64,000 bases of DNA from Pseudovirgaria hyperparasitica. Lineage: Eukaryota. A program made the translations under genes and the position numbers. A model generated the notes under the pieces. It worked only from the letters and a program-made list of their open reading frames with translations. It was not told where the DNA came from and did no database searches. Shown one piece after another: positions 19,836-24,844 of this stretch. Every line of letters begins with the position of its first letter. The first letter of the stretch is position 1. The stretch is from the NCBI GenBank assembly GCA_010093815.1, contig ML996583.1; one strand, 5' to 3'.

Positions 19836-20247
19836 CTAGAACAGGCAGTCCAAGCAGCAACAACACGCAAGTGCAGCCATCAAGCCGGCACAGATGCCAC
19901 CTCCAGCACCGCCGCCTCCGTGGCGTCCTCTGTCATCATAGTAACCACCTGGAGGTGGTGGCCCTTGCTGGTAGTACATAGGCTGTTGCTGTGGCGGGTA
20001 TCCTCCTGGCTGCTGATATGTCTGGCCTTGCGCGCCATAAAAGTCTGCATTGGCACCCTGTGGTGGTCCTTGCTGGTAAGACCCTTGTGGCGGAGGGGAA
20101 CCGTATTGATTATTGTGGTAGGGGCCGGCGTCATAATGCGCTTGGGGAGGAGCTTGAGGATAGGATGGGGGAGGGCCATTTGGGTCCTGCAATGGCATTA
20201 GCTAGAGTGTGCGATGATGTCCCTGAGAAGCATACGTATTTGGACAT
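19836..20247 (-). CDS. Cysteine-rich transmembrane module (CYSTM) protein; exons 20236-20247 and 19836-20186
   Basis: P/Q/Y/G-rich N-terminus and the C-terminal GICAGLMAALACCCCLDCLF signature. A 12-nt first exon (MSKY) is followed by a GTATGC...GCTAAT...CAG intron at 20187-20235. Confidence 0.9.
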
Positions 20248-21484
20248 CTTGTAAGCAATGAAATTGGGAGTTTTGGCTTTCTTCAAGTATCGGGCTCGTG
20301 TGAAGTCAATATTAGATCAGGCCAGGACCTTTCGGATGCTTCTTGTATGACGTCTTTGGCGTAAAAGGTGGGACGTATATTATGTAGAGCAAGGTGTTTT
20401 ACGAATTCTAGTAGAGGAGGGGGTTAGAGATGAATAAAGTTGATAGAGCAGTGTAAGAAGAGAAATAATGGCGGCAAGATTCGGTAATTGAATACCAAAG
20501 CTCACCTGCACGATGGCTGAGCATCATGTGGCTGTGAACATGGATGGCGCGCGTCCTCACCCCGGACGCCTCCCCGCTAGACTAAGAAAAGGCTAGAGCC
20601 CTTCAACGTCAAGCCTTTTGTTATGGGTAATCGGCAATTGAATGCACGCTGATTGATGTTTTCTCTCACATCAACGCACGGTGACCGTTCTAATACTACA
20701 GATTGCGCGTCTTGTCACAGATCTGTTCATTGCCAGTATTCGAGACGCGTTACACCGTCTTCTTTAGTCTACGTCAGCCGATACACCAAGCTCTAAGGTT
20801 ACTCATGACCTTTCTTCGTCGAAGTCTTATGATCATATACTTGTAATCGTATACTGATGTACTTTCTACCCAAGTAGGTTGCAGCTAACATAGATCCTTA
20901 GTATGCAATGGGGAGCACACCTCTCCTATTTTGCCCTTCTTGTACTTAGCAATGACTTTCATTAAGATGCCTCTTGCTTTTGCGGGAAAACACCATAGCT
21001 CACTTGAGTCCTGAAAATATATGAGCCTATGGTTCACGTAAACAATGATTGAGATGTATGCTTGACACTCTATATCATCTACCATGTAGTCAACCATTCA
21101 TCGCAGTTCACAAGGGGGTAAGTGTACGAGCACCTTTTTCCAAATGTTCATAAATCGATAACAAATCAAGAGTATTAGTGGTCAAAAAAGAGATTCCCCT
21201 TTACTCGTGTCAAGGTTTTTCTTTCGTATCGCATGGAAATCAGGGGTTCATTCGCTACACTATGCAGCCACTCCGACATTGCGCACGCTGTTCACTCTCG
21301 CACATCTCGACAGCAAGTCATATGAGTGACAAATAATACATGATTAGGTACGTTCACGTTCGTGGGTTGGGAAATATCCATGTGTGACGGACAGTGCTCC
21401 ATTACGCTGGCGCTGCTAGTGGCTCATAGAACACAACGCAACGCAGAATTCCAACAAGCCAAGTAGTTCATATTGCCTCGCCCA

Positions 21485-22510
21485 GTATGCGCTCGTGCTG
21501 TGACTGGCTACCTACTCTGTGTAGCCTCGACCAGGTAAGGGGTCAAATGGATGCGGCTCCAGCCGTGCCCACGTGGTGCTCGAATGCGCTCGGCCTCTGA
21601 CTGGCTCCTATAATTCGAGATTCGAGGGAATTTCGACGATGGACACTTTATCAGTTACCCTCTCTCGAATGCGATCGGACTGTGACTGGCTGCCTACTCT
21701 GTGTAGCCTAGACCAGGCAAGGGGTAAAAGTGAACGCGGCTCTATCCGTGCCCACGTGTTGCTCGAATGCGCTCGGCCTCTGAGTGGCTCCTATAATTCG
21801 AGATTCGAGGGAATTTCAACGATGGACGCCGTATCGATTACCCTGTCTCGAATGCGATCGGACTGTGACTTGCTACCATACTGTAGGTAAATGAAGGGGC
21901 GGGAGTCCACGTGGGCACGGTAGGGCTGGAATGCGCTCGCTCGCTGAGTGGCTATTATAATTTGAGATTCCAGGGAATTTCAACGATGGACGATTTTCAG
22001 TTGCCTTGTCTCGAATGCGATCGGACGCTGAGTGGCTGCCTGTGTTCTGGGTGACACGAGTGGGGCCAGCGGGAGGAAGTGAACGTGGATGCGGGAACAT
22101 GAGTGGGACAGCGGGAAGGAAGTGAACGTGGACACGGGATACGGGTGGATGAAGCCGTGAAAGGGGTCATGTGGATACCAGCACATGGCTTTCCATGTGT
22201 CGCTGTAGGGCTGGAATGCGCTCGCTCGCTGAGTGGCTCCTATAATTCAAGATTCGAGGGAATTTCAACGATGGACGATTTTCAGTTGCCTTGTCTCGAA
22301 TGCGATCGGGCTCTGAGTGGCTGCCTGCGGTATAGGTGACACGAGTGGGGCGAGCGGGAAGGAAGTGAACGTGGACACGGGTAGACTGGGCCGTGAAAGG
22401 GTCTGGTGGAGACTGGCACATGGAAAGCCATGTGTTGCTGTAGGGCTGGAATGCGCTCGGCCTCTGACTGGCTCCTATAATTCGAGATTTGGGCAGGTGT
22501 TCAACGGTGA
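21485..22510. repeat. Composite degenerate tandem repeat array (5 conserved cores, 10 copies of a ~25-bp motif, variable spacers)
   Basis: Motif GAATGCG(C/A)TCG-N5-TGA(C/G)TGGCT at 21485 (degenerate), 21582, 21667, 21765, 21850, 21929, 22013, 22214, 22298 and 22449. The core CCTATAATTCGAGATTCGAGGGAATTTCAACGATGGAC follows the copies at 21582, 21765, 21929, 22214 and (diverged) 22449. Confidence 0.95.
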
Positions 22511-23483
22511 GGGTGGAATAGTTGCCATACGTGAGAGTGGTGGGCCAATAGGGGGACACAGGGGTCTGTGGGCGGAGCTCAGGTCCGGTCAACTGGCAGG
22601 CCGACGTGAAGTGAGGCTGCTTGACACTGTTCAAGCGGTGAAAGGTGTGATCACTGGACAGTGTGAATGATAATACTAGGTCTTATACTTACCACGACCA
22701 ACTTTGCATCTGCCTTCAGAGTATACTCAGTTGCATAATATACATCCGAGGGTTCCATAGAACAAAGAAGGACAGCACTCATGGACCGCGATACAGCATC
22801 TTATTCTACTTATGCAGATTTCTAAGACGAAACGTTCCACGCCGCAATGGTTGTATTGGGAGTCAAGGGTTAGGACTTCCAATAAACATAATCGACATAT
22901 AACGACGATACTGGCCGCGTACACTGTACTTCCCAGACTTCAGCATGGCAATACATAGACCTACCTCCAATCATACCCTTCTCGAAAGCACGACGATGGG
23001 TTTTGAGTTTTAAGACCAGGCTAACACAGTCCAGCACATGACACTTTCAGTGTCGAGCGACTGAACGGCGAAAGAAACATGGAGACTGGTCAGGGGGGAT
23101 TCGAACATTATGGGACTGAGACTCCTTCTGCCAGTGAGTTCTTACGAAGCGAATTTCTTGTGTCAAGTCAATATGGAAAGCTCCCAACAGTATAACATCA
23201 AGTACATGTCTTAGTCAAGAGCTTAAGAATCAGTGCGAGCGACTAGCGTTGTTGACGCATAGTTGTGTAAATATCACGCATGATAACCTCACACTTGTTT
23301 CTTTCCCTTATGTGTCTTATCATTTCGTCTCTCATTACGATCGAAAACGATGCATTCTGCGCACTGTAGAGACATGTATACCCGAATTTTACGTATGGCT
23401 TCGTTGCTTTCGTCATGTACAAGACTTCTATACCTTTTTCATTGGATTCCACGCTAATAGTCACAGTTATACAGCTTTCCTCT

Positions 23484-24844
23484 TTACTGTTGTACAGCTT
23501 TATCCGCTAGCTTCAGCTTCTCTATTGCTTCGCTTGAGTCCTTGCCCAGATTGACAGCGTCCTTGGCCTCGGGATTGCCTTCCACCGAGCCATCGGGCTG
23601 CGCTTGCACGTTCTTTGCCGCACCTGCACCAGGGTGCCTGCTACCCTTGTCCTTGACCTTCTTCTTCTTCTCGACGACAGGGGGCGGAGGGTAGGCCTTC
23701 TTCTCGATCTCTTGCCATTCTTTGCTGGCTTGGAATGCGGCTTGAATAGGCTCCAGGAGGGCGAGGAGAGCGTTCGTCAGTGCGGGCTTCAGAGTCTGTG
23801 GGGAGAGCTGGGAACGTCAATTGGAATTTCCAGCATACACTCAAGGGCATGTATACGTACGACATCATTCCTGTAATCCTCTTTCATCTTCACAATATCC
23901 TCGTATACCAACGTCTCCGCATCCTTTCTCTCAACCTCAAATCTAGGCTTCCCATGCTTTAGCCGACTCGCCGGCAACAGGACATATTCGACGAAACTCA
24001 ACAGCCCATTCTCTTCCACCACCTTCGGCGCCGCCTGTGCTTTTTTGACCTTCTTCCGTACCGCGTCTGCTATGTCCAGCAAGTCAATCTTACTATCCGG
24101 GTCACTCGCGCTCATCTTGCCCCCCTGCAGCCCCGGTACCATCGGGTTCATCAAATGTGCGCGCTCCCGGTATCCAATCTTCGGCAGCACCTCTTTCGCC
24201 AGCGCAAAAATCTTTCTCTGATCTACACCGCCAAACTGCGCGTCAACGCCTAGGTTCTCCTCGTCCAGGGCCTGCATCAGCGGATAAATCAGCCCACTCA
24301 GAGTTGCGTTATCGACCTGCTTTACGACCTCGGCGCCGGCCTTTTTCGCATCGTGCTCAGTAACGACAGACGACAACTTGAAGAGGTCCATTGTGTATTT
24401 TGGAGTGAGTTGGTAGGAAGATCCGAGGACGAAGACGAGTTTTTCGATGGGCACGTTTATGGCTTTGAGCAGTTCTGTGATGACGAAACGGTAGTATTCG
24501 GCGCGGAATTGCACGAGCTCGATGGGAGCTTTGAGATTGTCAAGGAAGCCATGGATATCGGCAAGAAGGATTTTGACTTTGCAGCCGGCTTGGAGGAATT
24601 GGGCTATCTTCATGATGGGCACGAAGTAGCCACAGTGAGGGCGCCCAGTTGTTGCGGTGCCTGTGGGCAACGATCAGTCGTTTGATGTGAGCTGAGGGTG
24701 TTGGTTTGAGACGTTACCCCAGTAGATCTCGAGAGCTCGGTTTTGCTTGACCATTACATCTTCTATGATTTCTTCATTCAGGACTTCTTGAAGGTTTTCC
24801 TTTATGAGGGCCAGCCTGCCCTCATAGGTTGTTGGCTCCTCCAT
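23484..24844 (-). CDS. TYS1: Tyrosyl-tRNA synthetase, cytoplasmic; 3 exons
   Basis: Spliced IYWG|TATTGRPHCGY (HIGH-like), LIYPLMQALDEE, QFGGVDQRKIF and KMSAS (KMSKS-like). The last exon encodes LSPQTLKP...EWQEIEKKAYP...* with the stop at 23484. Confidence 0.95.

Follow-up and report, generated by a model that had tools for sequence, protein, structure and literature searches.

Two orientation differences in the spacers of a degenerate fungal tandem array are probably old template-switch footprints

When the same short sequence is found in opposite orientations at comparable places in a tandem repeat, the question arises as to whether the DNA is still being turned round by some active process, or whether the copies carry the traces of past events. 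Such a pattern occurs in a degenerate array in the genome of Pseudovirgaria hyperparasitica, where an initial annotation had described two orientation differences just upstream of a conserved motif and had suggested a recurrent hairpin-processing or site-specific inversion step tied to the repeat. The array has been analysed within the 64-kb stretch of DNA in which it lies (the window), and the explanation regarded here as probable is that the differences stem from short-range template switching or foldback in a palindrome-rich spacer, by events long past and now fixed, with no enzyme, recombination site or programmed switch involved. The window is nuclear core chromosome DNA of an ascomycete-type fungus. 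The products of its long open reading frames (ORFs) are housekeeping proteins, among them SHMT, a UBP-type deubiquitinase, HemD, Sua5, a P-type ATPase, LCAT and adaptin; 16 of the 22 ORFs of at least 200 aa match Pfam families, all housekeeping, and the closest protein clusters of an orphan ORF in the protein Atlas are from Ascomycota. The array itself is situated in a gene-poor stretch with a CYSTM gene on one side and a tyrosyl-tRNA synthetase gene on the other (Table 1). The CYSTM gene product is small and proline/glutamine-rich, and the promoter region of the gene faces the start of the apparently non-coding transcript discussed below.

The array is made up of copies of a 25-nt box with the consensus GAATGCGmTCG-N5-TGAsTGGCT, of which two types alternate in the order B0, A1, B1, A2, B2, A3, B3, A4, B4, A5. 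An A-type box is followed by CCTATAATT and a B-type box by GCCT or ACCT; the spacing from A to B is 84-85 nt, and the B-to-A spacers are G-rich and variable. The units measure 183, 164, 285 and 235 nt and have diverged by about 8-11% (8-17% at the widest), units 1 and 2 (identical at 162 of 182 positions) being recent duplicates and the modules of units 3 and 4 agreeing at 143 of 155. There was no RIP-type mutation bias between the units, where the ratios of transitions to transversions were 11:9, 6:6 and 13:11. The spacers are mosaics of reiterated CAYGTGG-type cores, and the assignment of homology between one spacer and another is consequently ambiguous. A 43-nt G-rich sub-repeat occurs twice in spacer 4 (22054-22139) and once in spacer 5, the motif CGTG-NN-CACG is found at five sites in the array as against one elsewhere in the window, over ~63 kb (10 and 2 if both strands are counted), and the array contains 6, 9, 14 and 41 inverted pairs of 14-mers at 0, 1, 2 and 3 mismatches respectively. 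The degenerate 'unit 0' that lies just upstream suggests that the array has grown from one pre-existing element. Per-contig depth in the DNA runs was ~264-274 in the unique pieces of the array versus 272 in the flanks, and about double (513.6) for a 41-mer common to A1 and A5; such a depth is not itself a copy number, but the values fit a single-copy array.

Table 1. Coordinates of the array, of the segments that occur in two orientations and of neighbouring features (positions in the window unless otherwise stated)
Feature	Position	Strand	Remarks
CYSTM gene	19836-20198	-	Pfam PF12734, E 1.7e-6, C-terminal CYSTM module; nearest gene, to the left
Spliced transcript, minimum extent	21000..22773	+	whole array inside; one contig extends ~260 nt further upstream
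Intron, 61 nt, GTAAGT...TAG	21118..21178	+	absent from the contigs of runs X3 and X4
Degenerate 'unit 0'	21378..21431	+	CCATGTGT, then a copy of the A box at 62-70%; immediately precedes the array
Degenerate tandem array, ~1 kb	21485..22490	+	ten copies of the 25-nt box
Spacer 1 block CCGTGCCCACGTGG ('F' orientation)	21563..21576	+	6 nt, then the palindrome CCACGTGG (8 nt)
Spacer 2 block GCTCTATCCGTGCCCACGTG	21739..21758	+	21746-21758 = CCGTGCCCACGTG
Spacer 3 block CCACGTGGGCACGG + TAGGGC ('R' orientation)	21907..21926	+	CCACGTGGGCACGG = 21907-21920
Spacer 4 sub-repeat core GAACGTGGACACGG	22124..22137	+	direct-orientation relative of the spacer 3 block, 11/14
Spacer 4 hairpin GCACATGGCTTTCCATGTGT	22181..22200	+	GCACATGG-CTTT-CCATGTGT; loop 22189-22192
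Spacer 5 sub-repeat core GAACGTGGACACGG	22367..22380	+	direct-orientation relative of the spacer 3 block, 11/14
Spacer 5 hairpin GCACATGGAAAGCCATGTGT	22416..22435	+	GCACATGG-AAAG-CCATGTGT; loop 22424-22427
31-nt box GGGCTGGAATGCGCTCGGCCTsTGACTGGCT	22443-22473; L005 263-296	L005 (-)	
Tyrosyl-tRNA synthetase gene	23789-24670	-	

An important consideration is whether the strings in question are real. All five that had been claimed to lie upstream of the A motif are present, and their distances to the GAATGCG of the A box (5, 5, 8, 13 and 13 nt) bear out the earlier figure of 5-13 bp. The spacer 3 string is, as described, the exact reverse complement of the spacer 1 form (14 nt, 100%), and spacers 4 and 5 do have the same arms round a flipped loop, CTTT and AAAG being exact reverse complements. 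Spacer 2, for which the same orientation as in spacer 1 had been noted, does share it, the identity extending to 13 of the 14 positions, with T as the 14th base. A listing of inverted repeats returned pairs of 14 nt (100%), 13 nt (100%) and 21 nt (95%), and these three are the only exact inverted pairs of at least 13 nt within 1 kb of one another in the 64-kb window, two of them being of at least 14 nt. Second-order Markov simulations (n = 100) produced on average 0.17 such pairs at k=14 (at most 2) and 0.94 at k=13 (at most 3), under a null model that ignores the reiterated CGTG/CACG motifs of the spacers and therefore overstates the surprise for the first of the pairs considered below. All five sites are spanned by contigs in each of four public runs, with no other letters and no gaps; the runs represent two samples from two studies, one of them possibly the assembly's own source. 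An assembly artefact can be ruled out, the contigs of the second study agreeing at all five sites. A second orientation, an indel or a strand-change joint was found at none of the five sites in any of the four runs, as judged from contigs, which drop rare variants.

The clearer case is that of the hairpins of spacers 4 and 5 (pair 2). The exact arms are 7 bp long (CACATGG/CCATGTG) and the same in both spacers, with G:T as the eighth pair, and as DNA the hairpins have a dG of -7.4 kcal/mol in spacer 4 (z -3.8; 1 of 200 shuffles folds as well) and -7.1 kcal/mol in spacer 5 (z -2.6; 4 of 200). All four loop bases differ between the two, and each loop is the exact reverse complement of the other. 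An exact inverted run of 18 nt connects 22182-22199 with 22417-22434, of which only the four loop bases inform on the flip, since the arms read alike either way. The flanks are collinear in the direct sense, units 4 and 5 being 83% identical over 94 nt, and the direct alignment of spacer 4 with spacer 5 scores 120. Among 32 mismatch clusters in 10 ordered unit pairs, the loop is the sole cluster that can be derived from the partner unit by reverse-complementing, and the chance that four adjacent independent substitutions would yield an exact reverse complement can be put roughly at the order of 1e-5 or less. Pair 2 can be firmly assigned as a clean hairpin-loop inversion, of the 'loop inversion only' class of template switches. 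With stable arms, an exactly reverse-complemented loop and collinear flanks, the earlier reading of the loop flip as a template-switch footprint at a hairpin is upheld; the change would have been a single template-switch event, in the lineage of either unit 4 or unit 5.

The situation is more complicated for the block of spacers 1 and 2 and its counterpart in spacer 3 (pair 1). Spacer 3 is genuinely related to spacers 1 and 2 in inverted orientation: local alignments score 28 (spacer 1) and 29 (spacer 2) in the inverted sense as against 16 and 15 in the direct sense, the inverted scores were reached by none of 300 shuffles, and the spacer 2 block aligns in inverted orientation with 21908-21926 of spacer 3 over 20 columns with 18 identities, one mismatch and one gap. 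The orientation is marked by just six of the 14 bases (CCGTGC versus GCACGG), the other eight being the perfect palindrome CCACGTGG, and the two forms amount to overlapping 14-nt halves of one 20-nt perfect palindrome. As DNA, the 14-mer of pair 1 does not fold into a hairpin (dG -2.4, -0.8 and -1.2 kcal/mol, z about 0). Its right flank, the A box, is collinear and its left flank aligns poorly; CCACGTGTTGCT of spacer 2 matches CCATGTGTTGCT of spacer 5, which is the 3' arm of the hairpin together with its tail, at 11 of 12 positions. It had been held that the two events took place at the same position in the spacers, and it is true that both lie at a CAYGTG-palindrome element just 5' of the A box, but the sub-repeat position of the spacer 3 block may differ. 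R would appear to be the orientation in which a spacer sub-repeat normally occurs, the flipped block of spacers 1 and 2 being at the position of the hairpin. Comparison with unit 0, a possible outgroup, returned p 0.034 for spacer 2 when reverse-complemented and p 0.146 for spacer 3 read directly (10 tests, no correction), a weak hint that the R orientation is ancestral. Given the identity of units 1 and 2 at 162 of 182 positions, one event accounts for both. The history of pair 1 may have consisted of an in-place inversion with small indels, of foldback extension to the 20-nt perfect palindrome followed by the loss of one arm, or of a flip of the 2-nt CC/GG spacer inside CGTG..CACG with indels, each taking about three steps, and all three scenarios are forms of palindrome-driven template switching. 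A template-switch origin of pair 1 is probable, if not clean, and we infer its mechanism, polarity and number of steps.

It has to be asked whether pair 1 involves an inversion at all. It can be argued that the loop flip is the only true inversion and that the 14-mer of spacer 3 is an ordinary direct copy of a GAACGTGGACACGG-type core, which adjoins the A box because ~60-120 nt of spacers 4 and 5 are missing there; the 14-mer of spacers 1 and 2 would then be a remnant of the 5' arm plus the 3' arm of the hairpin, and the two would be complementary because the motif family (CGTG-NN-CACG, CCACGTGG) largely coincides with its reverse complement. Gap-tolerant global alignments, in which gap extension is cheap, do indeed match the spacer 3 block to the GAACGTGGACACGG cores in spacers 4 and 5, where the flanks agree on either side, leaving spacer 3 without the intervening stretch, hairpin included. 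The direct relatives at 22124 and 22367 (11/14), the concentration of CGTG-NN-CACG in the array, the graded family of inverted 14-mer pairs and the direct alignment of spacer 1 with the hairpin region of spacer 4 (CCAGC on the left, CCAyGTGkyGCT on the right) all point the same way. However, the three positions that separate the spacer 3 block from the cores are exactly those that give it 14/14 complementarity to spacer 1, a coincidence for which the chance is, on a rough reckoning, of the order of 1e-4; in addition, the inverted match runs 6 nt past the 14-mer into the flank of spacer 2, and the inverted scores exceed the direct ones and are not equalled in the 300 shuffles. Whilst this makes it rather unlikely that the loop flip stands alone, the exact complementarity of pair 1 could in part reflect the self-complementary motif family.

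If both pairs are taken to be the products of template switching or foldback, the course of events may be pictured as follows. The G-rich spacer that precedes each A box consists of reiterated CAYGTGG-type motifs, one inverted copy of which, in spacers 4 and 5, makes a short hairpin possible. Quasi-palindromes of this type are hot spots, either for short-range template switching during replication, in which the growing strand is extended for a short distance on the complementary strand before it goes back, or for foldback priming in the repair of breaks. One event would have turned the 4-nt loop of the hairpin round in the line leading to unit 4 or in that leading to unit 5, and a second would have inverted a block of ~14-20 nt, or copied it in inverted form, pivoting on CCACGTGG, most likely in an ancestor shared by units 1 and 2. 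The two changes would be old and fixed, leaving one orientation per copy today. A palindrome-rich spacer is a hot spot for template switching in its own right, and that suffices to account for two events.

The kind of mutation is already known, and the array is a further instance of a known footprint. Pair 2 resembles the quasi-palindrome template switching of the Ripley model as treated by Loytynoja and Goldman (2017, PMC5453318) and Monttinen and Loytynoja (2022, PMC8794818). In PMC8794818, 69 clusters of the 'loop inversion only' class are recorded for RNA hairpins, the loops being typically of 4 nt, and loop inversion is treated as a signature of inter-strand template switching; PMC5453318 sets out a four-point model and describes numerous spacer inversions, together with one case in which a fragment only was inverted. 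With the 'loop inversion only' class pair 2 shares short arms, a 4-nt loop that becomes its exact reverse complement between unchanged flanks, a cluster explained by one reverse-complement copy and a hairpin located in transcribed RNA. Pair 1 resembles the 'inversion of a fragment only' or stem-extension classes of the same two papers. In the cases that they describe there, the comparison is of orthologues on a tree, whereas here it is of paralogous units of one array, and pair 1 further differs from those cases in having no arms beyond the 2-bp CC/GG and in pivoting on an internal 8-nt palindrome. Widespread inversions of 5-50 bp at plastid hairpins with arms of 11-24 bp are mentioned in a passage of PMC12928735 citing Kim and Lee 2005. 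As far as that passage goes, the array resembles these in that a segment between short inverted repeats occurs in either orientation, recurrently and with no dedicated enzyme; the plastid inversions, however, are attributed to recombination in a multicopy genome, and here a 4-nt segment lies between 7-bp arms in a nuclear single-copy array. Arms of 7 bp are short by the plastid standard, which tells against the template-switch reading. Short inverted insertions of ~5-34 bp templated by foldback at DNA breaks in yeast are the subject of the relevant part of PMC11724301 and likewise concern very short inverted duplications, made by foldback priming, in a fungal nucleus. Foldback priming as outlined in that part would extend CCGTGCCCACGTGG to a 20-nt perfect palindrome in which the two observed forms are contained, but its product is an inverted duplication and not an in-place inversion, and a later deletion of one arm has to be assumed.

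The value of the locus is that of a tidy nuclear fungal case of hairpin-loop inversion, which shows a palindrome-rich repeat spacer collecting template-switch rearrangements. It also serves as a caution for aligners and variant callers, by which such events would be read as clusters of substitutions. No new mechanism is opened up, and the transcript and the shared box described below may be worth more than the flips. Helitron-type 3' hairpins and rolling-hairpin termini, as these are generally understood, were considered for the hairpin and set aside as improbable, there being no CTRR-T end after it and the site being internal to the chromosome.

There is evidence that the array is transcribed. 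The contigs of runs X3 and X4, both from one study, skip the 61-nt intron and from there on are collinear through the whole array, and their cover fades at ~22480-22773, where that of the DNA runs continues. None of the listed runs is registered as RNA, and the RNA origin of these two is deduced from the skipping of the GT..AG interval and the drop in cover at the 3' end, features which make it very likely; if it is accepted, a spliced + strand transcript, divergent from the CYSTM gene, has the array in its last exon. The transcript is built largely of tandem repeat and is apparently non-coding, with no ORF of more than 83 aa in its spliced form and no Pfam match for any of the three ORFs of the array, and a spliced transcript of this construction is a new side finding. 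Every module has an ATG in the context ACGATGG (21639, 21822, 21986 and 22271), which in units 2-4 opens an ORF of 22 aa and from unit 1 an 83-aa read-through. A coding repeat or micropeptide was considered and rejected, a 1-nt indel between the boxes shifting the frames of units 1-2 relative to units 3-4 and no peptide being conserved. Searches of Rfam gave no match at the gathering score in the whole window and none at E values up to 5 in 20300-23300, and ARAGORN detected no tRNA genes. The modules have a potential stem AATTCGAGAT.../...GTCTCGAAT with inner AGGG/CCCT (21613-21672 and the same part of units 2-4). A conserved RNA fold of the module was also rejected: with four sequences, there are one compensatory pair and several G-U changes among the 31 predicted pairs, which is too weak.

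Retention of the pre-A element, as distinct from its origin, is the subject of a proposal that is compatible with template switching. According to this, selection keeps the element as a site that works regardless of orientation, either a CACGTG/CANNTG E-box-type protein site or an RNA hairpin, so that flips are tolerated and the arms or palindrome preserved. The hairpin arms of spacers 4 and 5 are identical at 14/14 positions when the 9 nt just upstream differ at three, the array is transcribed, the RNA hairpin of spacer 5 has a z of -2.4 and the adjacent 31-nt box recurs in another fungal contig. On the other hand, spacers 1-3 have no significant RNA or DNA structure (z -1.0 to +0.65), spacer 3 has no hairpin, the RNA of spacer 4 prefers a different pairing and Rfam has nothing to match, and selection of this type appears doubtful. 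A combined proposal, that the pre-A palindrome or hairpin is a flipping hot spot still active today and kept because it is functional either way, as a candidate structural or protein-binding module of a repeat-built, spliced non-coding RNA or of its DNA, is very improbable; were it correct, low-frequency mosaics of orientation would be expected among nuclei or isolates, below the level of detection in contigs.

Least credible of all is the original suggestion that active recurrent hairpin processing or site-specific inversion still flips the pre-A element between two orientations, in favour of which it can be said that a single 1-kb array has two orientation differences immediately 5' of the same box and that minority orientations could sit below contig resolution, but which found no support: each site has a single orientation in all four runs with no strand-change joints, pair 1 forms no hairpin, no recombinase or transposase family is present among the 22 ORFs of at least 200 aa in the 64-kb window, the segments (4 nt and 14-20 nt) fall short of what known recombinases use, the arms measuring 7 bp in pair 2 and pair 1 having no flanking inverted repeat beyond CC/GG, and the subsequent divergence of the units by 8-17% means that the orientation states are old. 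Arms of 7 bp round a 4-nt segment are far too small for a recombinase site. Switches of the Hin/Gin/Fim type and the 2-micron FLP system comprise a recombinase gene, sites of tens of bp, segments of at least hundreds of bp and mixed populations. The array has in common with them two orientations of a segment between inverted repeats; of a recombinase gene, long sites, a large segment or a mixed population, by contrast, nothing was seen in the window or in the contigs of the four runs.

The box has a life outside the array. One metagenome scan with the box pattern returned five loci, four of which (L001-L004) match the pattern itself only and look like chance. The fifth, a 1.6-kb fungal-type contig (L005), carries GGGCTGGAATGCGCTCGGCCTGTGACTGGCT, which agrees at 30 of 31 positions with the A5 box and its 5' extension. 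A literature search with five array motifs as strings found unrelated primer matches only. There was no significant similarity between the flanks of the box in L005 and those of the array (p 0.085-0.995), and the box, matching so closely between dissimilar flanks, is thus a discrete element in different genomic contexts. It may, to judge from sequence, be a putative regulatory or otherwise dispersed element. In L005 it lies ~260 nt upstream of an ORF for an MFS sugar transporter, in the opposite orientation and pointing away from it, and the sharing of a 31-nt box with the promoter region of a sugar transporter of another fungus is a second new side finding. The modules of the array also carry TCGAGATTCGA, that is TCG-N5-CGA (21616-21626 and equivalents), an arrangement presumably similar in spacing to the palindromic half-sites of some fungal zinc-cluster factors.
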